Shown piece by piece: positions 37,336 to 63,696 of a stretch of DNA of 64,000 nucleotides. The notes below the pieces were generated by a model, which did no database searches, was not told the DNA's origin, and saw only the letters and a program-made list of their open reading frames with translations. Each line of letters starts with the position of its first letter. Position 1 is the first letter of the stretch. The translations under genes were made by a program, and so were the position numbers. This DNA is from Halobacteriovoraceae bacterium (GTDB lineage: Bacteria > Bdellovibrionota > Bacteriovoracia > Bacteriovoracales > Bacteriovoracaceae). The stretch lies in NCBI GenBank assembly GCA_963719505.1, contig CAVRCF010000005.1:672001-736000 (forward strand), given 5' to 3'.

Positions 37336-37353
37336 CGTTTAAATTTCTACACA
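37336..37353 (+). promoter_or_regulatory. Island box 1, before a non-coding segment
   Basis: CGTTTA-aatttc-TACACA; TAATAT at 37396-37401 (gap 42). Confidence 0.65.
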
Positions 37354-37407
37354 TAAAATAGACCAAGCCTAAAACACAGTCGACCTAAGATATTCTAATA
37401 TTTTTAC

Positions 37408-37548
37408 AAGAGAACATAGGAGGGAGCGCATACCTAATACCTGCTATTGTCCAGACGTGAAAATAGTGTTTTCACACATCTTAAAAATTCGCTTATTCAA
37501 GCATTCTATATTTCGAATCCTAAGCCTCAGAACTGAGGCTTAGAGATC
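37408..37548 (+). ncRNA. Candidate small RNA driven by box 1
   Basis: Box plus -10 element, no ORF with RBS and start, internal hairpin GTGAAAA-TAGTG-TTTTCAC, ends at the 37520-37543 hairpin. Confidence 0.4.
37520..37543. terminator. Perfect hairpin after the hybrid kinase gene and the candidate sRNA
   Basis: CTAAGCCTCAG-AA-CTGAGGCTTAG. Confidence 0.75.
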
Positions 37549-37552
37549 TTCT

Positions 37553-39379
37553 TCAGGTTAAGTTATTGTAGACACCTTTTATAAGGTCTGTTGACGTCAC
37601 AGGCTTTGTTATATGATCACTAAAGCCAGCTTTCTTTGTTCTAACTCTTTCCTCATCCATTGCATGTGCTGTAAGGGCAATAATGGGAATTTCAAGGTTA
37701 TGTTCTTTCATCATTCTGATTGCTTGATAACCATCGATTTCTGGCATTTGGAGATCTAGTAAGACGAGATCAAAATCTTTTTCCTTAAACTTCTCAACCG
37801 CCTCTCGCCCACCGTAAGCAAAATCAGCATCAGCCCCAACCTCTTTTAGGTAGGCATAAAAGAGTCGAACATTTTCTTTGGCATCATCAACGATTAAAAT
37901 ATTCTTTCCACTTAAATCAATTTGAGCAATCTCCAATTCTGGTATTCCCTTTGAAGATTTTTCATCAAGTGAAGTGATAAAACTTCCTCCATCGACAATA
38001 CCAACATCAACTTTAATTTCGAAAGTTGTCCCTACATTCTCTCTGGTCTCTACGATCTTTAAATTACCGCCCAAGCCCCTTGCTATCGATCTTGATATCA
38101 TAAGTCCCAATCCAGTCCCTCCGTAGATTCTAGAGACAGACTCATCAGCTTGCTCAAAAGGTTTGAAAAGTCTCTTTTGATTTTTCTTCGAGATCCCAAT
38201 ACCAGTATCATTAATGGTGAAGACTAATTTATTAGACTTTTTATTAAAAGTGGCAATCAGCTCAACATGCCCCTGTGCAGTAAACTTAATAGCATTACCG
38301 ATAATATTAAAAAGAATTTGTTTTAATCTTTTTTGATCAGAGTTAATATAACGAGGAAGTTTCCCTCTGCTAGAAAAAATGAGTTCTATATTTTTCTCTG
38401 CTGCTTTCACGTTTAAAAGCCCATAGACATCTGTCAAAAACTGCGTCGTCTCAACTTGCTCAATTCTATAATCTATTTTTCCTGATTCAATTTTTGAGAT
38501 GTCTAAAATCTCATCTAACAAACTTAAAAGATGATTACCATTTCTAAAAACTAACTCAATAGCCTCATCTCTCTCTTTTTTATCCAGCGAATGAGAACGG
38601 AGCATCTCTATGTAGCCTAAGATAATCGTCATGGGAGTTCTAATTTCGTGAGATATATTTGAAAGAAAGTTTGTTTTAGATTTTGATGCACTCTCTACTT
38701 GCACCATGGTTTCTGTAATTTTTTCGTGCTGAGAAGAAACAGCATTAAAAAGTGGACGGTAAACAAGGGCCCAAATAATTCCAAACTGCCCTACACAACA
38801 AAGAACGAGAAGAATTCCAAGAAGGTCCAGCTCATCCAGAGAGTTCTCTTGGTTCTCAGCAACTCTCGCACTGAGTAGTTCTAAGACTTTCCCTAACCCA
38901 GATGAAGAACTTTTAATGAGGAAACTAATATTTGTATTTACTCTTTCTTTTGTATCAATTTCTTCATCCACAAAGGAGCTTGCGACATCGATGAACTCAT
39001 AAGTCTTCTTTTCTATATTTTCTGAAATTAAAAAGTCTTTAAAGCCTTGAAGTTTAGGAAGTCTGTTCGCTTTAATCCAGCTATAAAACTCTTTCGTTTC
39101 GTTTCTCAATCTTTTGATAAGTTCAATGAATCTAATTTCATTGGCCAAAGTGATTTCTTCTCCCTCAAAACTTTGAGAAAAATCTGTTATGTCGACCATG
39201 AGAAAAATCTGTCTTTTAAGATAGGAATTGAAAGTTTGGTAGGATTGTTGATCTGAAATTAAAGAACGGTTAAGCACTAAGAAGACTGCTGAGAGGCTGA
39301 CAATAATGAGAAAGCCCACAATATTTGCAATTAAAAATTTCTTACGCGTGAGCTCTAAAAGCTCATCATAACTTCTCAT
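37553..39379 (-). CDS. Hybrid sensor histidine kinase (2 TM, HisKA, HATPase, REC)
   Basis: FLSNISHEIRTP, NAIKFT, DTGIG, GGTGLGL, LLDLQMP. Confidence 0.96.
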   Translation of the reverse strand: MRSYDELLELTRKKFLIANIVGFLIIVSLSAVFLVLNRSLISDQQSYQTFNSYLKRQIFLMVDITDFSQSFEGEEITLANEIRFIELIKRLRNETKEFYSWIKANRLPKLQGFKDFLISENIEKKTYEFIDVASSFVDEEIDTKERVNTNISFLIKSSSSGLGKVLELLSARVAENQENSLDELDLLGILLVLCCVGQFGIIWALVYRPLFNAVSSQHEKITETMVQVESASKSKTNFLSNISHEIRTPMTIILGYIEMLRSHSLDKKERDEAIELVFRNGNHLLSLLDEILDISKIESGKIDYRIEQVETTQFLTDVYGLLNVKAAEKNIELIFSSRGKLPRYINSDQKRLKQILFNIIGNAIKFTAQGHVELIATFNKKSNKLVFTINDTGIGISKKNQKRLFKPFEQADESVSRIYGGTGLGLMISRSIARGLGGNLKIVETRENVGTTFEIKVDVGIVDGGSFITSLDEKSSKGIPELEIAQIDLSGKNILIVDDAKENVRLFYAYLKEVGADADFAYGGREAVEKFKEKDFDLVLLDLQMPEIDGYQAIRMMKEHNLEIPIIALTAHAMDEERVRTKKAGFSDHITKPVTSTDLIKGVYNNLT

Positions 39380-39389
39380 TAATATTATC

Positions 39390-39704
39390 TCACAATTTTA
39401 GGCTGTCTTTTTTCAAGTTCATGTACTTTTTTATATCATTAACATAACTTTTACATCTAGATTGGTCACTTGATTTCGCTGCGCTTTCTAATTCAACTGC
39501 CAAAGTTCCTAGGTGATTGAAGCCATAAGGGGCTGAATAGCCTTTCCACTTGTGCGCTACATCCTTTATTAAAGTGAAGTCACCGCTTTGCGCTGCGCTA
39601 TCGACTTGTTCAATTTCCTCAATTCTATCAGCGTAGAACTCACTAATAAATGGCTCTAGCGCTTTATCAGCTTTTTCATTAGAAATTAATTCTTTCATAT
39701 ACAA
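39390..39704 (-). CDS. Stand-alone Hpt phosphotransfer protein
   Basis: AHKWKG..YG. Confidence 0.88.
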   Translation of the reverse strand: MYMKELISNEKADKALEPFISEFYADRIEEIEQVDSAAQSGDFTLIKDVAHKWKGYSAPYGFNHLGTLAVELESAAKSSDQSRCKSYVNDIKKYMNLKKDSLKL

Positions 39705-39768
39705 CCTCTTTATAATTGGTTAACATTTTAGAATAATTTATCATGATATTTAGCTAAGGTAAAAAAGA

Positions 39769-40461
39769 ATGAGCAAAGTTTTATTAGTAGAAGACAGTAA
39801 AGAAATCAAAAAAATGGTGGAAATTTCTCTCTCCGGTTTAGTAGAGCAACTTGATTGGGCTGAAAATATAAATGCTGCAGAGGAAATCCTAAAAGAAGAG
39901 AAATATGATCTTGTCTTGTTAGATATTCAACTGCCAGATGGAAATGGAATTGAATTTTGCCAGAAGCTTTTCATGACATATCCAGATACTTCTATATTCA
40001 TGCTAACATCTCAAGACGCTTTATCTGAAAAGGTTATGGGTTTCTCCGCTGGGGCAGAAGACTACATCACAAAACCGTTTAGTACTCTTGAATTAAAAGC
40101 GAGAGTTGAAGCAAAATTAAAAAGAAAAGAGCTTCAAAAATCTAATAGCAATCTCCTTAATTGGGAGAAAATAAAGATTAATATATCTAACCAGGAAGTT
40201 GAAATTCTTGAAGGTGAAGCATTCAAAAGTATCGATCTCACAGCACTTGAATTCAAACTTTTAATCTATTTTGCCAACAGAGTTGGACAAGTTATTGAAA
40301 GAGACACTATCCTCAATGACATCTGGGGCGAAGATGTTCATGTATACTCAAGATCTGTCGACACTCATGTAAGTAAATTGAGAAAGAAACTCGAAGGCGT
40401 ATCTGGTATCATTGAATCTGTTCATGGCGCTGGTTACAAGTTTAATCCTACTCATAATTAG
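39769..40461 (+). CDS. OmpR/PhoB-family response regulator
   Basis: LLVED, LLDIQLPDG, DYITKPF, LTALEFKLL, RSVDTHVSKLRKK, GAGY. Confidence 0.96.
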   Translation: MSKVLLVEDSKEIKKMVEISLSGLVEQLDWAENINAAEEILKEEKYDLVLLDIQLPDGNGIEFCQKLFMTYPDTSIFMLTSQDALSEKVMGFSAGAEDYITKPFSTLELKARVEAKLKRKELQKSNSNLLNWEKIKINISNQEVEILEGEAFKSIDLTALEFKLLIYFANRVGQVIERDTILNDIWGEDVHVYSRSVDTHVSKLRKKLEGVSGIIESVHGAGYKFNPTHN

Positions 40462-40479
40462 AACAAAGATTTTTCAAAT

Positions 40480-40509
40480 AAAAAAAGGGAGCTTTAAGCT
40501 CCCTTTTTT
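40480..40509. terminator. Bidirectional terminator
   Basis: AAAAAAGGGAGCT-TTA-AGCTCCCTTTTTT. Confidence 0.9.
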
Positions 40510-40510
40510 G

Positions 40511-40879
40511 TTAGTTAATTGTTTTATCTAACTTTGATTCTATCTGTTCACCGTACTCTTCCATTTTTTCTTTAAAATCATCCCATTTCTGTGCTGTTGT
40601 TTCACTGGCTTGTTCTCCAGCTTTAGCCACCTCTTCTCTGTATTTGGCTGTGCTGGCTTTTAATTCTTTGTACTCTAGAACAAGCTTATCTTTAGCATCA
40701 CCTGAGAGCTTTACGGTTTTATCTTTTAACTTTTCAAGCTTAATTTCGAGCTTATCTAACTGTTGAGAAGCCTTCATTTTAAATTCTTCATAATCACCCT
40801 TATCTGAGGTTGTTGCATAAGCACCAAGAGAAAGGGATAAAATAACTGTAGTTAATAATAATTTTAATTTGTGTGACAT
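40511..40879 (-). CDS. Secreted amphipathic helical stress-type protein
   Basis: AAGGAGG RBS; signal peptide; all-helical and charged, KWDDFK. Confidence 0.75.
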   Translation of the reverse strand: MSHKLKLLLTTVILSLSLGAYATTSDKGDYEEFKMKASQQLDKLEIKLEKLKDKTVKLSGDAKDKLVLEYKELKASTAKYREEVAKAGEQASETTAQKWDDFKEKMEEYGEQIESKLDKTIN

Positions 40880-40952
40880 AATTCCTCCTTATATCTTCAC
40901 AAACAATATGCCATCTTACTCAAAGTAAAAATGTTTTCTAAGGTGAAAGAAC

Positions 40953-40970
40953 TGTGTACTTTAATACATA
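40953..40970 (-). promoter_or_regulatory. Island box 2
   Basis: TGTGTA-ctttaa-TACATA; minus-strand CATATT at 40910-40905 (gap 42). Confidence 0.75.
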
Positions 40971-40979
40971 ATTTAAAAT

Positions 40980-41333
40980 TTATTGTTCTCTAAAGAAGCC
41001 CTTCAAAGTAAGTATCTTATCTTCGAGTTGGGCCAGCCTCTCATCAATATCTTCGAGTACATCATGGCTCTCTTTGGTGTCGACATAATCTAGTTTGGTA
41101 AAAAGCATATCTATTGATTCAAACTTATTTGATATGTGCTGAGATAGGTTCTCATAGATGGAGATGACACTATCATCGCGCTCTCCCATCTTTTCTTCAA
41201 TCAACTTCATTTCTAACTCAAGAGCATAAAGTTTTTCGTAGTGACTTTTCTCCGCTATCTCGTTTAGAATCGTATCATGTTTTAAAAAGTGGGGTTGGTA
41301 TTCTGAAATGTTTCTTACATTGAAGTTTTTCAT
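40980..41333 (-). CDS. Hypothetical acidic coiled-coil protein
   Basis: AAGGAG RBS; helical heptad pattern. Confidence 0.7.
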   Translation of the reverse strand: MKNFNVRNISEYQPHFLKHDTILNEIAEKSHYEKLYALELEMKLIEEKMGERDDSVISIYENLSQHISNKFESIDMLFTKLDYVDTKESHDVLEDIDERLAQLEDKILTLKGFFREQ

Positions 41334-41408
41334 TTATCTCTCCTTGATAAAGCCTAATAAAATCATATTCCTTATAAAAAAAAATGTTTCTTTATAACGT
41401 AATTAGAA

Positions 41409-41426
41409 TGTGTAGATATCTACACT
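41409..41426. promoter_or_regulatory. Island box 3, serving divergent promoters
   Basis: TGTGTA-gatatc-TACACT; plus TAATAT 41469-41474 (gap 42); minus TATGAT 41367-41362 (gap 41). Confidence 0.82.
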
Positions 41427-41506
41427 AAATAACCATTCCTTGGCCGAGAGAATATGTTTATTCTCAGGTAATATTAAGTAACAAACTTAAACCAAAGGAG
41501 ATCATA

Positions 41507-41716
41507 ATGAACAACGATCAATTAGAAGGAAACTGGAAAGAATTTAAAGGGAAGATCCAATCGAAGTGGGGCGAACTTACTGAAGATGAGATGGATAAAA
41601 CCCAAGGTAATTTAGACCAACTAAGCGGTAAAATACAAAAGAAGTTTGGAGATTCGAAAGATGAAGTACATAAGTATTTTAATTCAGTACTAGAATCATT
41701 TAATAAGAAAAACTAA
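41507..41716 (+). CDS. csbD: CsbD/YjbJ-family stress protein
   Basis: DQLEGNWKEFKGKIQSKWGELTEDE...GKIQKKFG. Confidence 0.95.
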   Translation: MNNDQLEGNWKEFKGKIQSKWGELTEDEMDKTQGNLDQLSGKIQKKFGDSKDEVHKYFNSVLESFNKKN

Positions 41717-41725
41717 GAGTATATA

Positions 41726-42235
41726 GTGGAAAAAATACTGATCACCGCTGGATTCAAAGATGTAGAGCAACTAGAACTTGCTTCGCAAAAGCTCATCAGT
41801 TCTGGTATAAAAAAAGAGATGATAAAGTATATCACCTCTCCTATATCTCGTTACAGCGGTGTTCATTTCCATTCGGAATCTAGGGGGACAACTTTTGGTT
41901 TTCGAGCGATACCATGGGGATTAACATCGGGGGTAGTATTTTACTTATTATTTCTTTTTTTAGGGTCAAGCAAAGGTTTTTTTGCAATAATAGGTTCTAT
42001 TAATTTAAATAATTTTCTACTCAGTGTCCTTGCTTCTGCCTTTATTGCAATGTTTATTGGTTACGAGATCGGCAAAAGAACGAAAATTAACTTTGTTGAA
42101 ACTCAAAAAAAGTATCCAGAAGAAGAAAATATAACTTTAAGCATTGAAACTGACAGCCAAAATAACCTTGATGTACTCAATACACTTAACCAATTTGAAG
42201 TCGTTAACCTTCATTCGGCAGCGACTCTAAAATAG
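41726..42235 (+). CDS. 2-TM membrane protein inserted in a ferredoxin-like fold
   Basis: ITAGFKD..LELA..KL N-terminus, two hydrophobic helices, beta-alpha-beta C-terminus. Confidence 0.65.
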   Translation: MEKILITAGFKDVEQLELASQKLISSGIKKEMIKYITSPISRYSGVHFHSESRGTTFGFRAIPWGLTSGVVFYLLFLFLGSSKGFFAIIGSINLNNFLLSVLASAFIAMFIGYEIGKRTKINFVETQKKYPEEENITLSIETDSQNNLDVLNTLNQFEVVNLHSAATLK

Positions 42236-45187: not shown

Positions 45188-45688
45188 TTATGTTAAGTGA
45201 GACTTATACATCCAAGATGTCTTTTCGTGATTTGCTAAAAGTGTTATTAAAAAATCCTCTGTAACAGGATCTTCTCCCATTGCCTCTTTGTTTTCTTTAA
45301 GAAAAAATTTAATCTCTTCTTGAATGGTTAAACTAGAATTAAAAAGGTCTGAGAGCATCTGGTTGGTTGAAAGCTTCTCCCCATTCATTTCTTTTAATGT
45401 ATTTTTATCGTTCATTTTTGAAACAGTACTTATTGGGGTCTCGTCTAAAACTCTTACCCTCTCAGCAATATCGTCCATAACGACCAGTAAATCCTTGTAC
45501 TGAGTTTCTAGAAAGCTATGAATTGTTAGGAACCTAGGTCCGGTGATATTCCAGTGGTAGTTTAAGGTTTTAGTGAAAAGGCCATATTCATTTGCCAAAA
45601 GACTGTTAAGGAAGCTTGTCATTGATGAAATGTGTTTTTGATCTACATTTCCGATTGGTCTTTTTGTTGAAATTTCTGCTGAATTCAT
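45188..45688 (-). CDS. dps: Dps DNA-protection ferritin
   Basis: YHWNITGP.F..IH..LE, DDIAER, HEKTSWM. Confidence 0.95.
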   Translation of the reverse strand: MNSAEISTKRPIGNVDQKHISSMTSFLNSLLANEYGLFTKTLNYHWNITGPRFLTIHSFLETQYKDLLVVMDDIAERVRVLDETPISTVSKMNDKNTLKEMNGEKLSTNQMLSDLFNSSLTIQEEIKFFLKENKEAMGEDPVTEDFLITLLANHEKTSWMYKSHLT

Positions 45689-45763
45689 TTCTTCCTCCTT
45701 TATTTAGTTACCCTTATAGTAACAAAACAAAGGAGATGCTTTCCTCAATCTTTTGTGATTGAT

Positions 45764-45781
45764 TGTGTATTTATCTAAACA
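45764..45781 (-). promoter_or_regulatory. Island box 4, upstream of the dps operon
   Basis: TGTGTA-tttatc-TAAACA; minus TACTAT at 45721-45716 (gap 42). Confidence 0.8.
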
Positions 45782-46358: not shown

Positions 46359-46979
46359 TTACTGCTCAGACTTCTCACTTGTTGCCTCAACCTCTGCAGG
46401 TGAGTTTTCCGTAAGGTCTGCTTCTTCAGTAGCTTCTTCAGCTACAACTGTTGGAGCTGAACAAATAACGACTGGCTTATCTGATTCTTCCTGAAGTTCT
46501 ATTCCCTTCGGAAGCTTTATATCGCCAATAGTTAAGTTATCTCCAATATCAAGATGGCTAATATCCACCTCAAAAGATTCTGGCATATCGCTTGGCGTAG
46601 CTAAAACCATAATAGCATCTCTAATTGTTAAAATTTTTCCTCCGGCTTTTGCCCCTTTAGCTTCTCCTGTCAGTGTAACAGGAATTTCTAATGAAGTTTT
46701 TTCGCCTTTTTTAAGAGCGACCAAAGAGAAATGAATTCGATCATGACTTACTGGGTCTAACTGAATTCCACCAAACTTAACGAAGCTTGATCCCTTTTTC
46801 GTTTTTACTTTATAAATTTCCCCTTGCATTGAGAGAAAATTTGAAAGATCTAAGCTTTTCATTTTAATAGTTTCAGTTTCCATTCCATTTCCGTAAATCA
46901 CGCCCGGTACATACCCATTTGCGCGGATTGTTTTTGTTTTTACGTCTAATGCTCTGTCTTCAAATTTTAATGTATTCAC
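46359..46979 (-). CDS. rplY: 50S ribosomal protein L25 / general stress protein Ctc
   Basis: IRANGYVPGVIYG, QLDPV, IPVTLTGEAKGAKAGG, VDISHLDIGD, acidic tail. Confidence 0.92.
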   Translation of the reverse strand: MNTLKFEDRALDVKTKTIRANGYVPGVIYGNGMETETIKMKSLDLSNFLSMQGEIYKVKTKKGSSFVKFGGIQLDPVSHDRIHFSLVALKKGEKTSLEIPVTLTGEAKGAKAGGKILTIRDAIMVLATPSDMPESFEVDISHLDIGDNLTIGDIKLPKGIELQEESDKPVVICSAPTVVAEEATEEADLTENSPAEVEATSEKSEQ

Positions 46980-46987
46980 TCTTTCTC

Positions 46988-47599
46988 CTAGTTTAAAACC
47001 ATTCCATATTTTATGGCTTCATATTGTGTAAACGGTAATCGTGTATCAGCGTTTATTTTAGCACCTAAAAGGTCTGCGTGCACAAGGTTTGTGTCCCTCA
47101 TATCTGCACCTCTAAGGTCAGCGTATCTTAAATCAGTATTCTGAAAATTACATTTTCTTACATCTGCTTTGATCAGACAAGCCTCTCTCATAAAGGCTCC
47201 TTTAAATGAGCAATTCTTAGCGATAACATTTGAGAAGTTTGCTAAGACTAAATCAGACTTTAAGAAACTTACATTTTTTAAAAATGATCCTCGAAAAGAT
47301 GAACCCAGCGCCTTTAATCTCTTAAAACTTGTATTAATAACTTCAGCTAAATTTAAATTCACCCTCGTTAAATTGGTTAACTTAAAAACTGTCTTATTCA
47401 AATAAGCCCCACTTAGGTTTGCCTGTTCCAAATCACTGTTGTCAAATTTAACAAAAGACAGATCAGATCCTGAAAGTTGAGCTCCTCTTGCCACACTATG
47501 CTTAAACTGAGCTTTCGAAAGTGAAGCATTTTCGAAGTCGTAATTATTCATTTTTCGATTTCTAAAATCTTTACCTCTTAAATCTCTTATCGTTTTCAT
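46988..47599 (-). CDS. Pentapeptide-repeat protein
   Basis: Repeated A(D/N)LxG-type units (ANLSG, ADLRG, ADMRD). Confidence 0.93.
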   Translation of the reverse strand: MKTIRDLRGKDFRNRKMNNYDFENASLSKAQFKHSVARGAQLSGSDLSFVKFDNSDLEQANLSGAYLNKTVFKLTNLTRVNLNLAEVINTSFKRLKALGSSFRGSFLKNVSFLKSDLVLANFSNVIAKNCSFKGAFMREACLIKADVRKCNFQNTDLRYADLRGADMRDTNLVHADLLGAKINADTRLPFTQYEAIKYGMVLN

Positions 47600-47898
47600 T
47601 AATGCCTCGTCTTATTTGCATGATCAAGGGACATAAAAAGTGCCTTGGCGGAAGACTTCATGGCATCACTTAAAGAATCTCCATCTTTATGGACGTAAAG
47701 ATTCTTCTCGTTTGGCCTGATGAGATGAACGCCACACTTTATGGCTTCTCCAGACCTAGAGCTTGGCTCAATCCAAACGTGAACAGCACAATTGTGCGTT
47801 TCCGAAAGCTTATTAAACTTTTCTTCAAAGAAGTAATGAGCACTTCTTTCAACATCATGAAAGTTTAAATTCGTTTGATTATGTACAATTGTTTCCAT
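47599..47898 (-). CDS. HPF/RaiA-like ribosome hibernation factor (divergent)
   Basis: 99 aa; YFFEEKFNKL, VHVWIE, CGVHL, LYVHKDGDSLSDAM. Confidence 0.65.
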   Translation of the reverse strand: METIVHNQTNLNFHDVERSAHYFFEEKFNKLSETHNCAVHVWIEPSSRSGEAIKCGVHLIRPNEKNLYVHKDGDSLSDAMKSSAKALFMSLDHANKTRH

Positions 47899-47963
47899 AC
47901 AATCTCCGTTAGTTAATGTTATACGTCATAGACATTTTGACCATTTAGCAGAGTATTAACCAA

Positions 47964-47981
47964 TGTGTAGTTTTCTACACA
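47964..47981 (-). promoter_or_regulatory. Island box 5 (consensus match), upstream of the HPF-pentapeptide-rplY operon
   Basis: AA-TGTGTA-gttttc-TACACA-TT; minus TAACAT at 47921-47916 (gap 42). Confidence 0.85.
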
Positions 47982-48261: not shown

Positions 48262-48279
48262 TGTGTTTATTTTCACACA
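48262..48279 (+). promoter_or_regulatory. Island box 6
   Basis: TGTGTT-tatttt-CACACA; TAAGAT at 48322-48327 (gap 42). Confidence 0.72.
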
Positions 48280-48345
48280 AAAGAAAAATAGAACCTTGCA
48301 GTAACTAGTCACCAATAGCAATAAGATAGAGTCAGGAGGATTATT

Positions 48346-48897: not shown

Positions 48898-49983
48898 TTA
48901 TTTCTTTACAAGTAGTTTATTGACAACTTTATCAAAAGGATAAACTTCTAAAACCATATTTTCTGTAAATTCTTTTGTCGAGTAACTTCCTACAACCCCT
49001 TCGAGTTCAATGACCTTGTTGAAAATTGTAACTTTTAACGTTTTGATGTCAGCAAAGATGAGTTTGAGCCTAGATTCAATCTCTTTTTCTCTCTTTTTAA
49101 TTGGGAATTTCACCTCTCCCGTTAGGACTATATCTCTTTTGATCTTTTGAATTCCACTAAACTTTTTAATTAAGTTTTCAATACTCATAAGATCTTTATA
49201 ACTATCTATTGATCCATTTATCGTAACAGTTCTATCTTTAAAAATATATTTCAAGTCCACCATCCCCTTTGCCGTATTTTTAACATATAGACCTATCATT
49301 GACTGAAGTCTTTTCACATCAACTCTATCAACATGTTGAACTGAAAGGTTTTTAGCAATGGCTTTTTTCACTCCTAAGACTGACTGAACTTCTTTGACCA
49401 CAATCTCATATTCAAAAAGATTTTTGGTGTGTCCGTCTATAAAGACGAAGCCATCAACCGATTTAATTTTAACATCAGTTGAAGGAGAAAATATTGAGAT
49501 ATGAGATTTAACTATTTTTGCAAGCCTCTCATCGCCTTCACTCACGCCCCTAGATTGATTCCTCATTTTTAAACTCTCTATAATAATTTCAGGAAAGAGT
49601 TCCGCTTCACGTGGCCAAGAGATAATCCCACTTATACCTTTTGCATAAAGGTTACTATAAAAGTTTGAACTCCTTTTCGTTCTAGAAAGAAAGTATTTTG
49701 GAATGTCACTATACAAGGCAAGAATATCATTCATTCTTCTTGGAGAAGTGATTTTGAGTTCATTTTCGTCAAACACTATGGCGATAGTTGATCTATTGAT
49801 AGAGAATGTCGCCTGTGCCATCGAAGTCACTCTCAGTGAGAAACTAAATTGATTTTGTAAAATTTTTAATTTTTCACTCACCTCTCCATTTCCAATCACG
49901 ACGATATTGTAGTTTTTATCGGGGATAAATTTAGGTGGGCTATGGGTTTTATCAAAATAAGGCTTTGTTGTTTGCATATTCAT
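48898..49983 (-). CDS. Degenerate receiver-like domain fused to three BON domains
   Basis: IVFD/YFLS/GIISWP REC-like core; BON ends GVKKAIAKNL, GIQKIKRDI, DKVVNKL; no signal peptide. Confidence 0.65.
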   Translation of the reverse strand: MNMQTTKPYFDKTHSPPKFIPDKNYNIVVIGNGEVSEKLKILQNQFSFSLRVTSMAQATFSINRSTIAIVFDENELKITSPRRMNDILALYSDIPKYFLSRTKRSSNFYSNLYAKGISGIISWPREAELFPEIIIESLKMRNQSRGVSEGDERLAKIVKSHISIFSPSTDVKIKSVDGFVFIDGHTKNLFEYEIVVKEVQSVLGVKKAIAKNLSVQHVDRVDVKRLQSMIGLYVKNTAKGMVDLKYIFKDRTVTINGSIDSYKDLMSIENLIKKFSGIQKIKRDIVLTGEVKFPIKKREKEIESRLKLIFADIKTLKVTIFNKVIELEGVVGSYSTKEFTENMVLEVYPFDKVVNKLLVKK

Positions 49984-50048
49984 AAAGTCTCCTTAAAGCC
50001 ATTATATGTTACGACACAACGCGACTCTTTCACTGAAGGTGACTTTAG

Positions 50049-50066
50049 TGTTTAATATGATACACA
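50049..50066 (-). promoter_or_regulatory. Island box 7
   Basis: TGTTTA-atatga-TACACA; minus TATAAT at 50006-50001 (gap 42). Confidence 0.82.
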
Positions 50067-52997: not shown

Positions 52998-53078
52998 TTC
53001 TTATTCTCCTTGAGTTATGTGTTCCTGCCTAAACTACCTATAAGTAATTGATATTTCTTTAAGGACTTAACCGGAGAA

Positions 53079-53096
53079 TGTGTAATAATAAACACA
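53079..53096 (-). promoter_or_regulatory. Island box 8
   Basis: TGTGTA-ataata-AACACA; minus TAGTTT at 53036-53031 (gap 42). Confidence 0.75.
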
Positions 53097-55374: not shown

Positions 55375-55392
55375 AGTGAATAAATCTACACA
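55375..55392 (+). promoter_or_regulatory. Island box 9, upstream of the BON-LEA-PAP2 operon
   Basis: AGTGAA-taaatc-TACACA; TATCTT at 55436-55441 (gap 43). Confidence 0.65.
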
Positions 55393-55475
55393 ATCTTTAA
55401 ACCTGAACAGGCTTTAACTTCATTGTAAACTAGACTATCTTAAGACCAATGCTCGTTTATATCAGGGAGGTATAC

Positions 55476-56793: not shown

Positions 56794-57552
56794 ATGAAAG
56801 CTTTATTCTCTCTTCTGTTTATACTCACTTGTATAACAAACTCTTTTGCCCAAACCAATACCGCTAAATCAATAGATCCAACGGTGACTGACAGCAGATC
56901 AGCTTGGGAAATCGAACAAAAAAACCTCCTCTCTCCGTTCACTACACCTGCCATTTGGATTCTTGGTGCAGGCTCACTTTTAACTTATGTTGTTTATAGG
57001 GCCAAAGAAGACAATGGGGATATTGGTTATAGAGAAGACCATAGAGAGGGGAATACATCGACAAATCTTGCCAATCTAGCAGGTTGGGGCTTATTTCAAA
57101 TTGGTTATACACTAACTCAACTTCCTGGCTTGATGGATAATGATAAAAAAGCACTAGAAAATACTGAGATGATGTGGAAATCAACTCTCTACACAAGCCT
57201 TACAACTTTTGTTTTAAAACTTTCTGTCCGAGAGGAAAGAAGAAATCTTGAAGAGAGATATGAATCATTCCCATCGGGACATGCATCAGCAGCATTTGCT
57301 TTTGCGACCAACGTAGCACTCAGACACGAATGGTATTGGAACTTTATCAGTGTACCACTCGCTCTTTGGGCATCAGTCTCAAGAGTTCATGATGACTCTC
57401 ATTATATCCATGATACGATCTTTGGAGCCGCACTAGGAATGAGTTTTGCCTATGGGATGAACTATATTAGTGATGGTGAAGAAGTACCATTTTTACTTGG
57501 CTACGAGCCAGTAGAAGACGGTGGCGGAATCGTCTTTAAATACAAGTTCTAG
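56794..57552 (+). CDS. PAP2-family phosphatase
   Basis: KLSVREER, SFPSGH, SRVHDDSHYIHD. Confidence 0.9.
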   Translation: MKALFSLLFILTCITNSFAQTNTAKSIDPTVTDSRSAWEIEQKNLLSPFTTPAIWILGAGSLLTYVVYRAKEDNGDIGYREDHREGNTSTNLANLAGWGLFQIGYTLTQLPGLMDNDKKALENTEMMWKSTLYTSLTTFVLKLSVREERRNLEERYESFPSGHASAAFAFATNVALRHEWYWNFISVPLALWASVSRVHDDSHYIHDTIFGAALGMSFAYGMNYISDGEEVPFLLGYEPVEDGGGIVFKYKF

Positions 57553-58373
57553 CTCTCCAAAGCAGCTGACCGATCCACAACGGGTCTTTGAATATTATTG
57601 TCTCGAAGGACCCTATTTCCTCTGGTGGTGATGTCGGTTAAAAAAGATTTCTCATATTTTACATCTAAAACGTACGCCTTCACACTCACCTTCACGACAA
57701 AGGTGTTAGATATGGCACTTTCTTCAAATACGAGAGACACTTTCTTTTTCAAATAAACGAAACGGGAAGTAATCACAACTTCATGTAAAAGTTTATGAAC
57801 ATGATCTAAGTTTTCGAAGATGGAAACATAGAAAGTTGTCACAACCATCATTTGCAGGGCGCCAGAGTTTCCCGATGATACAACATCAGTTAAAAACTTA
57901 GAGTTTGGAATCGTGATAAGATTATCATCAAGTGTGTTGAGTCTTACTGATCTCAAACCGATGTTGACAATCTCGCCGTAGTTATCTTCAAATTGAACTC
58001 TGTCTCCTACTTGAAATGGCCTATCAAAAAGTAAAATAAATCCCGCGATAACAGAGCCGACCAAATCTTTGAGTGCAAAACCAAATGCAACAGCAGCCGA
58101 GCCCCCAATACCTACGAGCAGCTCTCGACTCGGTTGGAAAACAAAATAAAACACGCCTAAAACACCAATAAGATAAGAGACAAAAGATAAAACGGTGGTT
58201 AATTGTAAGATAAGAAGTCTTTTACCTGAAAATTTTTCTTGAAGTTTAGCTGACCAAAGATTGAGAAGCCTTACACCTGCCACAATACAGAAAACAAGAA
58301 ATACAAATAAAAAGATCTTATCTATGTTGAGAAAGTTAAAAATTAAAACTGAAATATCGTTACTAGTTTCCAT
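57549..58373 (-). CDS. MscS-family mechanosensitive channel
   Basis: AFGFALKD, DRPFQVGDRV, IGLRS, TIPNS. Confidence 0.93.
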   Translation of the reverse strand: METSNDISVLIFNFLNIDKIFLFVFLVFCIVAGVRLLNLWSAKLQEKFSGKRLLILQLTTVLSFVSYLIGVLGVFYFVFQPSRELLVGIGGSAAVAFGFALKDLVGSVIAGFILLFDRPFQVGDRVQFEDNYGEIVNIGLRSVRLNTLDDNLITIPNSKFLTDVVSSGNSGALQMMVVTTFYVSIFENLDHVHKLLHEVVITSRFVYLKKKVSLVFEESAISNTFVVKVSVKAYVLDVKYEKSFLTDITTRGNRVLRDNNIQRPVVDRSAALES

Positions 58374-61371
58374 AGATAAAATTCTTTGCTCGAAGCTGTT
58401 TAATTAAAATATGTTGGGTTGTAATATCGATCATAAATCGACTCCTATCATCTCTATATAAATATTTTCTTTCCAAGGAAAGTTTAAGAGCATTTCTCAC
58501 AACTCCTTTGGGAAGGTTTGAAGTTGAAACGACTTCGTTTGTTGATAAATTTTCGTGCTTTAGAATATGGGCAATGACAAAGAGTTGATCATCTGAGGCA
58601 AAAGCCAAATCGACAAGCTCTACCTCTTTTGGCACATTCACATTAAAAGTTGATTTATTTTTTCGAGAAAGAGCTGTAAGCCAAAGAGCTAATGCAGCTC
58701 TGGGATTCCCTCTGGAGAGCTCCCAAAGAAGCTTAAAAAACTTTGATTCAATTGAAGCATATCTATCAATTTCATCTTGTGACTTAGTTGCACTTATGAG
58801 GAGGTCGTAAGAGAGTTTGTAAGATGACTTTTCATGTCGCTTCATAATTAACTCTTTGATTTTTTCGTCTGACCACCCTTTCAGTTCAAAAACGTTTCTG
58901 AAAAACTGTGTTTTACCAAATGCACAGTCTAAGTAATTCCAACTCGACTTATTAAAAGAAAGAACCCAAAAGATATTTTCAGTCGGAAGGTTTAAGATAT
59001 CTGTTAAGTAATAGTAAGCTTCAAAGCCGCTGGTCTGGGATAAAAAGACATTTTGGCACTCATCGATAACAACAACCTGTTTCTTTTCGTACTTTCTATC
59101 ATGCGAAGGAAGATCAAAATTTACATCATCAACAATATCTAAAGTTTTTGCGATAAATTCCTTCAACGATTTCTTTGTTAGAGTCTTAGCTGGCATCTTT
59201 GTATAAATAAAATCAATATCCTCCCCTACTTGCTCTTCCAATTCTCGGCATAGATGTTTCAAAAGACTTGTCTTACCTATCCCCTTATCACCATAAAGAA
59301 CGAGAGAGTGCTCATCTGACTTTCCACTTTGCCAAAACAAAATATCCTCTTTCAGTTCTTTCTCTGTCTTTTCATCTTGAACAACATAAAGATCATCTTT
59401 TGACAAAGAGTACATTGCAAACTCTTCTTTATAGTCATCTGGGATCGACTTTTCAGAGCCTTCACTCGCCTCAATACTTTCAATTTGTTTTTTAAAAAGA
59501 TTAGCTGAGAGTTTTTTAGAAAAGGTAAAGTTTTCAGTTAAATCAATAATGAAATTAAATAAAGAAAGTATAATAATAGCAATAAATAAGAGAATTGGCT
59601 CAAGCTTACCAGGAACAAAGCTTAGGAATCGGCTAAAACCGTCAACAACAAAGCCTGCAAAGCGAGTCTCTAAATACCTTTTAAATTCTGCTTCCCACAT
59701 TTTCGCAAGTGAGAGAACTTGTACGAAGGAATAGATAAAAACGATAATTTTTATAATCGTAAATATATAAACTTTACCGATGGCCGCTCCGGTAAAAAGA
59801 TTCATCAAAAGATAGAACAACACAATATTTTTAAACTTATTTGAAGTAAGATCAGCTTTTTTTCTAAAGGACAAATAACTAGTTGAGTTAACCGAAGAAA
59901 CTGAGCTTAAAAATAAAGTAAGTGCTGCTTTGACAAGTCGAGAAATGATAATGATTTCAAAAAATCTCAAGAAGAAACTATATTCTAAGAAAAGCTGATT
60001 CTTCTGTATAATAAGGATGGAAATTATCCATAGTATTTCTTTTGAGTTATCTTTAATTTTGTTCCATCCACTTGAGAGTGTATTGAACAGCTTCGAGTTC
60101 CTTCTTTTTATCGCCTGCGTTCTTAGAGTTTTCGTTATGATTCCCTCAAGTTTTACAAACCCTTTGTTTAAACCAAATAAAACAAGGATCAAAAGAACAA
60201 GCCTAAAAAGCATAAAAGCAATCTCGGCATATCCACTGCGACCTCTATAGAGCATCTCTCTAATTTTAAAATAACTTGAGTAGGCATAGCTTAAAAGCCT
60301 ATAAGGAGAAAGCTTTACTTCTTCAACAATCAAAGTCATCCCCTGAATCGAAAAGATACGTTGAACTTTATAAGCAAAACTTGACTGCGCAAACAATGTT
60401 GAACGCAAGGAGTTCACTTGAACGAGAAGATCGTTTAAGAGCTTGAGTTCACTCTCTTTTTTATCGGTTAGAGAAATTATGGACTCTTGTTTAAGATTGA
60501 CAATACTTTGCCACAAAGAAATAACTTCCTCTCTTTGTTTTTTTGGAAGCTCTTGCAATCGAGCAGGAAGAATGGGGATAGAGGGAAACTCAAAAGAGAT
60601 TTCCGTATCTAAAAGATGAGAAACATTCTCTTTTGAAACTTCTAGCCAGAGAGCTTCAAGAACTTCAAAGTCCTTGTATGTCGCTGGCATTTTATCTTCT
60701 ATGTATTTTATTTTTGTCTCAAGGCTGGAGTTATACTCAATTTGTTTTTCTAAAAGTTCAATTTTTATTTTCTTAAGAGTTTTGGTATAGAGAATGAGCT
60801 CTTTTTGTAAAACATCCTTGGTAGACTCTATCTTAACTTCATCGTCGGCAAGAGATTTTTCAAGTAGGACTTTCTCATTCTCTGAGATATCATTAGATTT
60901 GGAAAGTTGGTCTTTTAAGCTTGGAATAGCACTGGAATTATCAAGATTAGATTTTAAGGCATTATTAAGTTTTTTATTTTTTTTATAGAGTTCGACTTTT
61001 AAGAGATTTACTTTCTCAGAAAGAGAGATTAAGTCTTCTCTTTGCTCACTTTTATTTAGTTCCATTAAACAATTTACTAAGTATAAATGTTCTGGAGCTA
61101 CGCCCAAATTTCTCTTTTGATCTTGCTTTAGTTTTTCAATAGTTTTGTCATCCAAGACATTGTAGTCATGTTCAAAAACTTCACTTAAGATTGACCCTTC
61201 GACCTTCTCACCCTTAAGAACACTGTTAAGCTGAGTTATTGTTAGATTTAATCGCTGCTGAGCATCTTTATATAAAGAGTTTATATTTTTTTTCTGACAA
61301 TCAATTTGGGTAAAACCTGGGATCGAGAATATGAATATATTGAAGAGTAAAACGCATAATAAATTTTTCAT
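58363..61371 (-). CDS. Large membrane ATPase: periplasmic coiled coil, TM bundle, AAA/STAND-like NTPase, C-terminal wHTH-like region
   Basis: Signal peptide; Walker A GDKGIGKTS; Walker B VVVIDE; SRGNPR; several hydrophobic helices in the middle. Confidence 0.8.
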   Translation of the reverse strand: MKNLLCVLLFNIFIFSIPGFTQIDCQKKNINSLYKDAQQRLNLTITQLNSVLKGEKVEGSILSEVFEHDYNVLDDKTIEKLKQDQKRNLGVAPEHLYLVNCLMELNKSEQREDLISLSEKVNLLKVELYKKNKKLNNALKSNLDNSSAIPSLKDQLSKSNDISENEKVLLEKSLADDEVKIESTKDVLQKELILYTKTLKKIKIELLEKQIEYNSSLETKIKYIEDKMPATYKDFEVLEALWLEVSKENVSHLLDTEISFEFPSIPILPARLQELPKKQREEVISLWQSIVNLKQESIISLTDKKESELKLLNDLLVQVNSLRSTLFAQSSFAYKVQRIFSIQGMTLIVEEVKLSPYRLLSYAYSSYFKIREMLYRGRSGYAEIAFMLFRLVLLILVLFGLNKGFVKLEGIITKTLRTQAIKRRNSKLFNTLSSGWNKIKDNSKEILWIISILIIQKNQLFLEYSFFLRFFEIIIISRLVKAALTLFLSSVSSVNSTSYLSFRKKADLTSNKFKNIVLFYLLMNLFTGAAIGKVYIFTIIKIIVFIYSFVQVLSLAKMWEAEFKRYLETRFAGFVVDGFSRFLSFVPGKLEPILLFIAIIILSLFNFIIDLTENFTFSKKLSANLFKKQIESIEASEGSEKSIPDDYKEEFAMYSLSKDDLYVVQDEKTEKELKEDILFWQSGKSDEHSLVLYGDKGIGKTSLLKHLCRELEEQVGEDIDFIYTKMPAKTLTKKSLKEFIAKTLDIVDDVNFDLPSHDRKYEKKQVVVIDECQNVFLSQTSGFEAYYYLTDILNLPTENIFWVLSFNKSSWNYLDCAFGKTQFFRNVFELKGWSDEKIKELIMKRHEKSSYKLSYDLLISATKSQDEIDRYASIESKFFKLLWELSRGNPRAALALWLTALSRKNKSTFNVNVPKEVELVDLAFASDDQLFVIAHILKHENLSTNEVVSTSNLPKGVVRNALKLSLERKYLYRDDRSRFMIDITTQHILIKQLRAKNFIYGN

Positions 61372-61438
61372 ATTTAATCTTATAAACTATGATTTCCTTA
61401 AGCAATTTTTAATTTTAACTCAACGCAGTGGGTAAGAC

Positions 61439-61804
61439 ATGATAAAAAGTTTGGCTTTAATTGCCCATGATCATCAAAAAGATAAATTAGTCGATTTCGC
61501 AAAAAGAAATTTCAAAGAGCTATCCGGCTTAGAGCTTTATGCGACCGGAACGACAGCTAAAAGGCTTGCGCAGATAGGACTGACAAATATTACAGCTGTG
61601 GCCAGCGGTCCTCATGGAGGAGATCTTCAAATTGGATCTCTTATTGTCGAAGACAAAATTGATGGAATGATCTTTTTATGGGATCCGCTCTCCCCACAAC
61701 CCCACGATGTTGATGTTAAGGCGCTTTTGAGAATTGCAGTTTTAAAAAATATTTTCTTGGCCAGTAATTTGAGATCAGCTGAGAGCCTTATCCACCACCT
61801 TTAG
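61439..61804 (+). CDS. mgsA: Methylglyoxal synthase
   Basis: ALIAHD..K, ATGTT, SGPHGGDLQIG, QPHDVDVKALLR. Confidence 0.95.
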   Translation: MIKSLALIAHDHQKDKLVDFAKRNFKELSGLELYATGTTAKRLAQIGLTNITAVASGPHGGDLQIGSLIVEDKIDGMIFLWDPLSPQPHDVDVKALLRIAVLKNIFLASNLRSAESLIHHL

Positions 61805-62701
61805 ATCCAGCGCGGGCCTGGTCGATAATTCTAAAGTTGATACGGCTAGTTCGACCTCTCCTGCAGAATCATTAATCTTTTTAAGTATCGTCCTCGTGAG
61901 TAGATCTTTTGTTTTTCGTCGAAGTTTATAGTTTGTAATATACCTTAAGGTAAATTTAATTCCAGATGGGTCTATCAAACAAGTAACCATATGATCAATT
62001 TGGGCATCTTCGATCATAAATTTTCGAACCAGGTTCTTCCACTCTTCTTTTGATTCAATTTCAAACTGTTCAACAACTTCTTTAGCACTACTCTTTAGGA
62101 TTTCATCTGTTATTGCAATATCAGACTCAGATCTCACGACAATAGAGAGTTCATCCCACAAAAAAGGATACTCTCCAGAGTAGTTAAATACTGGCTCTTT
62201 AAAAACGAAGCTATTTAAAAGTCTTACAGTTCTTCCGTTGTAAAGATCGCCGTCGACCCAGTCTCCAATCTCCATCATGGTCGTTCTAAGGAGACCAATA
62301 TCAATAACATCTCCCCTTATACCACCGAGCTTTACTCGATCTCCTACACGATAAAAGTTATTAAAGGTGATAGCAAACCACCCAGCGAAAGAGGCTATTA
62401 CCTCTTGTAAGGCAAAGGCAATCCCTGCACCAGCAACTCCAAAAGCGACAGAAACCTCTCCTAGTTTGTCTGTGAAAATAACAATACTTGCGATAACGAT
62501 GAGTAAATAACTTAGAAAGCTTACAACTTTTTGAGATTGATATCGAGATGAGACAGAACTTACTTTTTTTCTAAAGTAAGTTTTTATAAATCTTGATATA
62601 CCCACGATAACTACGATCGTAATGATATAAATGACGATCTTTGACACCGCTGGATCAAAAAGCCATTTTTCTAGTTCTACATAATTCATTTTATTCTCCA
62701 C
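61775..62701 (-). CDS. MscS-family mechanosensitive channel
   Basis: GIAFALQE, YRVGDRV..GGIRGDVIDIG, PFLWDE. Confidence 0.93.
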   Translation of the reverse strand: MENKMNYVELEKWLFDPAVSKIVIYIITIVVIVGISRFIKTYFRKKVSSVSSRYQSQKVVSFLSYLLIVIASIVIFTDKLGEVSVAFGVAGAGIAFALQEVIASFAGWFAITFNNFYRVGDRVKLGGIRGDVIDIGLLRTTMMEIGDWVDGDLYNGRTVRLLNSFVFKEPVFNYSGEYPFLWDELSIVVRSESDIAITDEILKSSAKEVVEQFEIESKEEWKNLVRKFMIEDAQIDHMVTCLIDPSGIKFTLRYITNYKLRRKTKDLLTRTILKKINDSAGEVELAVSTLELSTRPALDLKVVDKALS

Positions 62702-62816
62702 CCTTACACCTTACTAAATAATACTTAGTACAAAAATGCAAACTCAGCACAATATAATGGCCAGTCAATCTCTCAACATATCTAGTAAAAGAGTGAAGTC
62801 GTGCCTTTGAACTCTT

Positions 62817-62847
62817 AAAAAAAAGAGGGAAAGCAAAGCTTCCCCCC
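62817..62847 (-). terminator. Intrinsic terminator
   Basis: Minus strand GGGAAGC-TTT-GCTTTCC hairpin followed by a long T-tract. Confidence 0.75.
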
Positions 62848-62870
62848 AATATAACTATAAAAAAATAGTT

Positions 62871-63398
62871 TTAGTATGTATAACCTAAAGTCAAAAAGCC
62901 ATAAGCGTTTTCACCTGCTAAGTCATCATTTGACCAATTTAGAGCTGTCATGTACTCAAGCCCTACTGACCAATCTCTATTTAGGTAGTAAGAAGATCCG
63001 ATTCTAAAGAGCGGACCGAAGGTCGTTTCGTCATCGTCAGTGTCTCCAGCATCTTCGTGTCTCATTATAGCAAGACCAGTACCAAGATAGACATCTGCAT
63101 TTGAGTTATCCTCCAGATGATGAATAAGGGAGGATCCGACAAGTAATTGTCTATCTTTTTGACCTAAACCGTCAGCTCCATTATCCCCAGAACTCATAAC
63201 AAGGGCATCGACACCTAAAGAGCCTTTTCTTCTTTCATGAGAAACACCACCGTTAAAAGTTGTATTTGAAAACCCACCGTATAACTTAGATATACCTGTT
63301 GAATTTTCCCAGTTTCTCTCGATCTTCTCTTCCAAATCTGCCATGGCAGCACCAGAGATTAGTGCTGTTGACAGCAATGTTGCATTTAAAACTTTCAT
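62871..63398 (-). CDS. Small outer-membrane beta-barrel (OmpW/OmpA-like)
   Basis: Signal peptide; VYLGTGL, SYYLNRDWSVGLEY, C-terminal LGYTY. Confidence 0.8.
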   Translation of the reverse strand: MKVLNATLLSTALISGAAMADLEEKIERNWENSTGISKLYGGFSNTTFNGGVSHERRKGSLGVDALVMSSGDNGADGLGQKDRQLLVGSSLIHHLEDNSNADVYLGTGLAIMRHEDAGDTDDDETTFGPLFRIGSSYYLNRDWSVGLEYMTALNWSNDDLAGENAYGFLTLGYTY

Positions 63399-63428
63399 TC
63401 TTTATAATCCTTTATTCAAATTTAATAC

Positions 63429-63602
63429 TTATACGTTTTTAGATTTTGAAGCCATCCCTCTGATCAGAGAAATAACAAAGAATGCTAAAAACAAGAAAAA
63501 ACAAATTTTTGCAAATCCTGCGGCAGCACCTGCAACTCCGCCAAAACCTAGAACTGCAGCAATAATTGAAATGAATAAAAATGTGATTGTCCAACTTAAC
63601 AT
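63429..63602 (-). CDS. DUF1328/YtjA (UPF0391) small membrane stress protein, missing from the ORF track
   Basis: [57 protein letters not shown]. Confidence 0.92.
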
Positions 63603-63678
63603 AAAAACCTCCTAAAGTTTTGTTGTTATAAGATTAGTCCAAATAAACTCTTCATTCCTGCCCAGTTAGTTTAGTAAA

Positions 63679-63696
63679 TGTGTAAAATTATAAACA
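63679..63696 (-). promoter_or_regulatory. Island box 10
   Basis: TGTGTA-aaatta-TAAACA; minus TAATCT at 63636-63631 (gap 42). Confidence 0.8.

Follow-up and report, generated by a model that had tools for sequence, protein, structure and literature searches.

To our knowledge, all well-studied general stress responses, i.e., those governed by RpoS, SigB and EcfG, are built on an alternative sigma factor. In the DNA discussed here a gene set of the same kind appears to be hung on a two-component regulator. It is a stretch of 64,000 nucleotides from a Halobacteriovoraceae bacterium, hereafter the window (C5:672001-736000 of a 3.69-Mb assembly, G000, with 37% G+C and 5 contigs), and it belongs to a predatory family whose regulation is almost unstudied. 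Its hallmark is an 18-bp palindrome, TGTGTA-N6-TACACA (the box), which recurs at a fixed distance from -10 elements. We consider it probable that the box is the operator of an OmpR/PhoB-family response regulator encoded at 39769-40461, which is predicted to receive its phosphate through a phosphorelay and to activate sigma-70 promoters that lack a -35 element.

The likeness to the RpoS, SigB and EcfG regulons lies in the targets: Dps, CsbD, OsmY/BON proteins, DUF1328 (YtjA-like), Ctc, SodC, a Blc lipocalin, DJ-1/PfpI and DUF883. What defines those regulons, however, is an alternative sigma factor with its promoter, whereas the common element here would be an upstream two-component operator shared by sigma-70-type promoters.

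In its geometry the box recalls several activators. The class I site of CRP is centred at -61.5. Like it, the box is a symmetric site for a dimer that would sit on one helix face, about six turns ahead of the start, and it can serve divergent promoters. But CRP reads TGTG-N8-CACA (TGTGA-N6-TCACA) and the box reads TGTG-N10-CACA, the boxes have no CRP-family gene linked to them, and conserved bases between box and -10 are unexpected for plain class I. A CRP box was rejected: the half-sites are 2 bp too far apart. GacA/UvrY binds TGTAAG-N6-CTTACA; GacA is of the NarL/FixJ type and has a handful of small-RNA targets. The 6-6-6 geometry and the TGT...ACA ends are the same, and some boxes here precede stretches without an open reading frame (ORF), possibly small RNAs. 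Yet the linked regulator is of the OmpR/PhoB type, protein genes make up most of the targets, and the box clusters scanned showed no GerE/LuxR-type domain. A LysR-type site, T-N11-A, has the wrong parity, since an 18-bp palindrome gives even spacings only (T-N12-A); no LysR gene is linked to the box clusters of G000.

OmpR at ompF and ompC and PhoB at the pho boxes bind direct repeats of TGT-type hexamers head to tail, at promoters that have no usable -35; beyond the strong distal site, weaker ones follow in 11-bp steps toward -35. The TGTGTA/TGTTTA half-sites of the box resemble these hexamers, a -35 is likewise missing, and a third half-site suggests a comparable stepwise array. The presumed high-affinity site here, however, is a palindrome with half-site centres 12 bp apart.

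The closest known case is HP1043 (HsrA) of Helicobacter pylori. This OmpR/PhoB-family winged-helix protein activates transcription in vitro; its site on the hp1227 promoter can be read as an inverted repeat, TTTAAG-5bp-CTTAAA, and it was modelled as a head-to-head dimer (PMC8345958). Its site overlaps the -35 (-26 to -42), and the protein is described there as an orphan that works independently of phosphorylation, with a degenerate receiver and housekeeping targets (PMC8345958). Family and inverted repeat are shared with the system discussed here, and a degenerate receiver recurs in a paralogue of our regulator (see below). The palindrome of the window, in contrast, lies at about -72 to -55 and has a spacer of 6 bp instead of 5 bp, and the regulator has an intact Asp, a conserved Hpt protein and kinase, and predicted stress targets.

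The searchable literature, supplements excluded, yielded no description of the box or the regulon. What appears to be new is an ordinary regulator family with an unusual operator geometry, in charge of a type of regulon that elsewhere is run by sigma factors.

The box in the window and in the genome

With up to two mismatches allowed, the window contains 11 matches to the box, against 1.60 expected from 100 dinucleotide shuffles (standard deviation 1.28, shuffle maximum 5); the one perfect copy, at 47964, compares with an expectation of 0. Ten of the 11 sit exactly where the initial annotation of this DNA had placed them, and independent ORF calls put all ten in intergenic DNA. Its list of -10 hexamers proved correct as well: the gap is 42 nt in nine of 11 promoters, 41 in one and 43 in one (Table 1), and of the nine hexamers at 42 nt one, CATATT at box 40953, departs from TANNNT. 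The annotation had further seen no box in the intergenic DNA of the first 37 kb, and this holds in substance. Only the eleventh match, at 26139, and a position weight matrix (PWM) match at 24235 were found there. Both lie about 19 nt before a start codon and are not promoter-like; the former has no -10 at 41-43 nt.

For the whole genome, genes were called with a simple home-made ORF picker based on codon usage (about 3,700 genes, 10.5% of the genome intergenic), and 59 other permutations of the half-site, handled identically, served as control palindromes. The enrichment and the spacing peak for which the annotation had proposed to look are both there. Of 36 matches with at most one mismatch, 28 are intergenic; the 59 control palindromes have 0-8 intergenic matches each, mostly 0-2. 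When both sides of the 63 intergenic matches with at most two mismatches are considered, TANNNT stands at offset 42 in 25 of 126 flanks and at any other offset in 0-8, which makes a single sharp peak. A weight matrix built from 25 promoters gives, at a threshold of 12, offset 42 in 33 of 216 flanks versus 1-14 elsewhere; this peak is partly circular, because the sites of the matrix had been picked by their spacing.

The excess over background puts the number of canonical-hexamer promoters in G000 at an estimated 30-36, with some near-hexamer promoters in addition. The boxes form clusters at C5:709-750 kb, C4:52-66 kb and C2:256-283 kb. Four of the 36 matches lie inside one repeated element and two are duplicates, and the 36 are therefore not independent. 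Box-like 18-mers with long identical flanks occur at C2:429583, C2:431206, C4:21198 and C4:22889 and also at C4:5659 and C4:38819; they form three inverted pairs, two with members some 1.6-1.7 kb apart and a third with members separated by 33 kb. These 18-mers seem to belong to the termini or the interior of a repeated element, possibly a mobile one, and they inflate the raw genome count.

The regulator and its company

In likening the box to those of GacA, TyrR and CRP, the annotation missed the likely regulator, a response regulator of the OmpR/PhoB family that is encoded within the block of boxes itself, beside an Hpt protein and a hybrid kinase (Table 1). Pfam recognises the receiver domain of the regulator (Response_reg, E 2.1e-23) and its C-terminal winged helix (Trans_reg_C, E 1.6e-21). 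Asp52, in the motif LLD, is invariant in three orthologues, and the best matches among proteins of solved structure are OmpR-family regulators, e.g., MtrA and KdpE. A named equivalog did not emerge: all 25 NCBIfam families shown score below their curated cut-offs, the top one being PhoB (TIGR02154) with 171.9 bits versus a cut-off of 296.2. The kinase has two membrane helices around about 150 amino acids, upstream of HisKA. Throughout the 29 orthologues compared, the recognition helix of the regulator, RSVDTHVSKLRKKL, is identical or nearly so and the wing is kept too, at an overall identity of 56-69%; such a near-constant helix fits a constant box. Other OmpR-family proteins of G000 differ in this helix, apart from one paralogue on C4 discussed below.

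Co-occurrence of box and regulator in related genomes

Among 238 genomes of the order, from 70 genera, orthologues of the regulator (56-69% identity) were found in 37 genomes and 16 genera, and across these 16 genera the box co-occurs and co-localises with the regulator gene. Genome-wide box counts, with at most one mismatch, were compared with those of the reversed pattern; with two mismatches the signal in the relatives was lost in the background. Among the 40 relatives surveyed first, enrichment was seen only in G000 (36 vs 9) and its congener G002 (11 vs 3), and only G000, G002 and G009 had a close orthologue of the regulator (69%, 60%) together with the whole kinase, sensor part included. 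In G002 the orthologue lies amid five boxes on one contig. In G009, with 61% G+C, the order is regulator, Hpt, kinase and then GGTGTAAATAGTTCCACA, 42 nt, TATCAT and DUF1328. The link between box and regulator spans about 30% to 61% G+C. The enrichment that the initial annotation expected in relatives is present in orthologue-bearing genomes (70 vs 17 in ten of them, 119 vs 29 with G000, G002 and G009 added) and absent from 37 genomes without an orthologue (65 vs 97). These whole-genome sums are descriptive, related genomes not being independent.

Two further comparisons go beyond such sums. Within 1.5 kb of 27 orthologues (94 kb in total) 22 boxes with a PWM score of at least 13 were counted; 18 of the 27 loci have at least one, and 16 boxes have TANNNT at exactly 42. 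Around other OmpR-family genes (159 loci, 1.9 Mb) there were 6 boxes and 0 composites of box plus -10, and in the AT-rich subset of these controls (28 loci, 346 kb) 5 boxes and 0 composites. The cleanest test comes from 13 longer stretches of 10 other, orthologue-bearing genomes, to which a PWM trained on G000 only was applied; the spacing is absent from this matrix and was not used for picking. It found 43 boxes, with TANNNT at exactly 42 nt in 42 of the 86 flanks, against a background of about 2 at other offsets.

The partners travel along. The Hpt gene adjoins the regulator gene in all 12 loci examined, and an adjacent kinase orthologue is full-length in 7 and partial in 2. Scanning of contigs with an alignment of three orthologues was dominated by generic patterns; among the matches listed the only orthologue was L060 (the same DNA as L241 of G059), where a 59% orthologue is accompanied by a box, 42 nt, TAGTCT and then DUF1328. 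A scan of metagenome contigs with the regulator yielded no orthologue: all 80 loci were at most 40% identical, and the generic pattern EDYITKPF swamped the scan.

Several observations weigh against the assignment of the box to this regulator. The regulator gene itself lacks a box. The direct repeats 10-11 bp apart that are usual for OmpR/PhoB proteins are not what is found: the strong site is an inverted repeat, and direct-repeat spacing is seen only as a weak third half-site at 11 bp. Nine of the 27 orthologue loci have no box within 1.5 kb, and some orthologue-bearing genomes have few boxes (G102 3 vs 2, G163 3 vs 2, G164 3 vs 1). G013 has distant homologues of kinase and regulator (38%, 46%) beside a DUF1328 gene, in front of which there is neither a box nor an alternative palindrome. 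In G004 both the regulator and the kinase's sensor part lack an orthologue, and yet TGTGTAGTTATCTCAACA, 42 nt and TAAAAT precede its dps gene. This box may be a relic, a chance match (estimated at about 1 in 1,000 per locus) or the sign of another binder. It lies at L055:16445 on the minus strand (G004:C7), has two mismatches, and has DUF2383, DUF1328 and LysR-type genes nearby. Finally, genes were called with a simple ORF caller, in an assembly of 83.5% completeness.

The box could then be a real operator of the same geometry with another owner, either an unlinked factor that shares the phyletic pattern or the OmpR-family paralogue encoded at C4:55194-55910 on the minus strand, which could bind the same boxes instead of or alongside the regulator, alone or as a heterodimer with it. 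The paralogue is 45% identical to the regulator over 175 amino acids and has a near-identical recognition helix, RSVDIHISKLRKKL; its receiver has lost the phospho-acceptor Asp. Its gene is the last of a box-driven operon with DJ-1/PfpI and a 122-aa protein, inside the second box cluster, and the G004 box, too, would be accommodated by another binder. The boxes, however, cluster around the canonical regulator-Hpt pair across genera, and the cluster genes scanned encode no other DNA-binding domain. Second matches (47-49%, E <= 1e-65) were seen in only three of the 37 genomes, G002, G201 and G233, a soft count as the cut-off would miss weaker paralogues. We regard another binder as unlikely. The second regulator copy of G002 (47% identity) resembles the C4 paralogue.

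Another receiver is found near boxes of G000. Two weaker ones at C1:79282 and C1:79779, with hexamers at 42 nt, precede a 119-aa protein and a 134-aa stand-alone receiver; the latter could be a phosphate sink that feeds back on the relay.

Anatomy of the promoters

Information content was calculated from 25 promoters of G000 and, separately, from 42 promoters of other genomes; the two sets agree. The consensus of the box, TGTGTAGATATCTACACA, is a full 18-bp palindrome, TGTGTA-gatatc-TACACA; in G000 the half nearer to the promoter is better kept than the distal one. The -10 is sigma-70-like, TANNNT. A TTGACA-like -35 is seen in neither set. Between box and -10, counting from the first base of the box, T23, A24, A26 and C27 are conserved in 32, 24, 33 and 19 of the 42 promoters, A37 in 37 and G39 in 26. 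T23 to C27 can be read as a degenerate third half-site, TAcAc, 11 bp past the proximal half and in the same orientation. If the -10 is taken to span -12 to -7, this half-site lies at about -49 to -44, A37 at about -35 and G39 at about -33. In box flanks without a hexamer at 42 nt, T23, A26, A37 and G39 fall to 21, 15, 22 and 14 of 44; these inner bases are promoter-associated.

The centre of the box is 54 bp, about five helical turns, from that of the -10, and 51 bp before the first -10 base, i.e., at about -63.5 with the same numbering of the -10. The distance agrees with the initial annotation, which had centred the palindrome some 63 bp upstream of the start. Its class I reading is not established: given the degenerate third half-site and the conserved A-35 and G-33, simple class I activation is not certain, and the inner bases suggest contacts that reach the -35 region. 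A single palindrome often sits between two divergent promoters, 42 nt from each. There are many such cases in the relatives; in G000 it is 41409, with 42 and 41 nt.

The sign of regulation is not provable from sequence, and some OmpR-family proteins both activate and repress. The regulator might accordingly bind the box but repress, or act both ways, e.g., by looping or by occluding an upstream element. However, the box lies outside the core promoter, 42 nt upstream of the -10; promoters without a -35 are expected to be weak unaided; and a distance that is exact to the base pair, as in 42 of 86 flanks from other genomes, is what stereospecific contact with RNA polymerase predicts, and is needless for a repressor. 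We therefore deem repression very unlikely. Two divergent promoters at equal distance from one box point, with the missing -35, to an activator as well.

The promoters might also be those of an RpoS-like or other general-stress sigma factor, with the box as an accessory upstream element. The gene set does match sigma-S and sigma-B regulons, and the conserved A-35 and G-33 could belong to an unusual -35. But the -10 is that of the housekeeping sigma factor, the strongest signal is the box and not a -35, and the cluster genes scanned include no sigma gene. Of the eight sigma-70-family (Sigma70_r2) matches in G000, six are frames of 107-238 aa. Besides RpoD, just one reaches group-1/2 size, an RpoH-type protein of 341 aa; it scores 264 bits as RpoH versus 163 bits as RpoS, and none of the eight scores as RpoS. 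Since the assembly is incomplete and the ORF calls are home-made, "no RpoS" here means "not found". What is seen, a TANNNT without a -35 and no RpoS-scoring match, does not resemble a dedicated stress sigma with its own -35/-10, and we give this explanation hardly any credit. Reading of the window promoters for sigma-54 revealed no GG-N10-GC. The annotation's preference for one dimeric activator over an alternative sigma is in keeping with the palindrome, the divergent promoters, the sigma-70-like -10 without a -35, the RpoS result and the stress targets.

A proposed mechanism

If the box is the operator of the regulator at 39769-40461, binding, activation, order of the relay, inducing signal and start sites may be inferred as follows. 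The membrane-bound hybrid kinase would sense an envelope or osmotic cue and pass phosphate via the Hpt protein to the regulator. Once phosphorylated, the regulator would occupy the palindrome, at about -72 to -55, in the form of a symmetric dimer and, from this fixed position, switch on sigma-70 promoters with a good -10 and no -35, probably with further weak contacts at the third half-site and near -35/-33. The base-exact spacing and the inner conserved bases suggest one of two ways of activation. The dimer may touch RNA polymerase rigidly from about -63.5, much as in class I; somewhat likelier, in our judgement, is that weaker sites in the direction of -35 are filled cooperatively, as they are by OmpR at ompF. 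Feed-forward and feedback loops would be added by the pseudo-receiver paralogue and the box-driven lone receiver. The regulon, roughly 30-45 promoters in G000, would comprise a general-stress and envelope set and would stand in for a sigma-S or sigma-B type regulon in a lineage in which no such sigma factor was found.

A bolder picture can be drawn, if only tentatively. Bacteriovoracaceae with this module may run a general stress response without a stress sigma, with the phosphorelay as master switch. A head-to-head dimer on a palindrome 42 bp from the -10 might nucleate weaker protomers toward -35 and fire divergent promoters, several dozen of them in G000, while a box-driven, phosphorylation-independent paralogue might serve as feed-forward amplifier and box-driven small RNAs might join in. 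We hold this complete picture to be possible, but distinctly less probable than its core.

With an operator so strong, simple and rigidly placed, prediction of the regulon should be easy for every genome of the family. If the assignment is true, it would be a clear natural case of an OmpR/PhoB-family protein on a palindrome at a fixed distal position. It would thereby bear on how, in this family, a symmetric receiver dimer is coupled to DNA and RNA polymerase.

Target genes and neighbouring features

The target content, to judge from the predicted products, is that of a general stress regulon. The names csbD, dps, osmY-like, DUF1328 and ctc, given in the initial annotation, agree with Pfam, which finds CsbD, Ferritin-like, two BON, DUF1328 and L25/Ctc. 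"Hpf" finds no support: the 99-aa product of 47599-47898 matches no family, and the same is true of several further window targets. Elsewhere in G000 the boxes precede DJ-1/PfpI, an operon of aldehyde dehydrogenase, Pmp3 and DUF2959, DUF883, DUF6627, a Blc-type lipocalin, Cu/Zn superoxide dismutase (SodC), MsrAB, a PNPOx-like protein, a short-chain dehydrogenase, a third BON protein, three OmpA-family proteins and the lone receiver domain.

In the relatives, 37 of 48 predicted downstream ORFs were scanned; nine were dropped as the same genes in overlapping loci, and two further ones (L254:4661-5584 and L255:5406-5582) were left out. The 37 products are 8 DUF1328, 7 Dps, 5 OmpA-family, 4 MscS, 7 without a family, and one each of L25/Ctc, DUF2383, DUF6627, PG_binding, LpxR and Pyr_redox.

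Table 1. Boxes, -10 elements and genes of the window (window coordinates; spacing is the oriented distance between box and -10 hexamer)
Feature	Position	Strand or side	-10 element	Spacing (nt)	Remarks
Hybrid histidine kinase, 608 aa	37553..39379	-			HisKA, HATPase, receiver
Hpt phosphotransfer protein, 104 aa	39390..39704	-			divergent from the regulator gene
OmpR/PhoB-family response regulator, 230 aa	39769..40461	+			receiver with Asp52; winged-helix Trans_reg_C
Box 1 (CGTTTAAATTTCTACACA)	37336..37353	+ side	TAATAT 37396-37401	42	no ORF after it; possible small RNA
Box 2	40953..40970	- side	CATATT 40905-40910	42	predicted to drive 40511-40879
Box 3, bidirectional	41409..41426	+ side	TAATAT 41469-41474	42	csbD
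Box 3	41409..41426	- side	TATGAT 41362-41367	41	117-aa gene
Box 4	45764..45781	- side	TACTAT 45716-45721	42	dps operon
Box 5, sole perfect copy	47964..47981	- side	TAACAT 47916-47921	42	99-aa gene, pentapeptide protein, L25/Ctc
Box 6	48262..48279	+ side	TAAGAT 48322-48327	42	52-aa lipoprotein-like ORF and DUF2391-like gene
Box 7	50049..50066	- side	TATAAT 50001-50006	42	361-aa BON-domain gene
Box 8	53079..53096	- side	TAGTTT 53031-53036	42	230-aa gene, no family assigned
Box 9	55375..55392	+ side	TATCTT 55436-55441	43	110-aa BON (OsmY-like) gene
Box 10	63679..63696	- side	TAATCT 63631-63636	42	DUF1328
Box 10	63679..63696	+ side	poor only (TTATAA/TATAAA)		faces 783-aa ClpB-type gene
122-aa secreted protein	40511..40879	-			weak match to sll1863-family stress proteins, below cut-off
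CsbD-like protein, 69 aa	41507..41716	+			target; Pfam
Dps (Ferritin-like)	45188..45688	-			glutamate dehydrogenase and DUF2383 come next on this strand
Operon of 99-aa protein, pentapeptide-repeat protein and ribosomal L25/Ctc	46359..47898	-			target
361-aa protein with C-terminal BON domain	48898..49983	-			target
BON-domain (OsmY-like) protein, 110 aa	55449..55781	+			target
DUF1328 membrane protein, 57 aa	63429..63602	-			most conserved target across genera

Some boxes face no protein gene. On the plus side of box 1 (37396-37560) there is an AGGAGG-like stretch, but no ORF of at least 30 aa with a proper start; the predicted transcript, about 150 nt, would run into a hairpin where the convergent kinase gene has its 3' end and is possibly a small or antisense RNA. 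At C2:385943 and C2:386230 stand tandem, near-identical copies of box, 42 nt and TATTAT/TACTAT; downstream of each come about 90 ORF-free nt that end in a hairpin. The 5' ends of these predicted transcripts (ttacaagag) resemble the start of the box-1 transcript, and the pair is a candidate for box-driven small RNAs. A search of 36.8-64 kb of the window and of C2:384-388 kb against Rfam produced only a sub-threshold match to sraA (34 bits versus 56), regarded as chance.

Two neighbours of the boxes may be mentioned. A 1002-aa protein is encoded at 58363-61371 on the minus strand, with a STAND/AAA-type NTPase (residues 670-850) as its sole recognisable part; its gene has no box upstream and overlaps the start of that of an MscS-type channel (57549-58373, minus strand). 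To the left of box 1, at 36935-37270 on the plus strand, lies the gene of a 111-aa protein with a SWIB/MDM2 domain (E 1.7e-15), a domain that is uncommon in bacteria.

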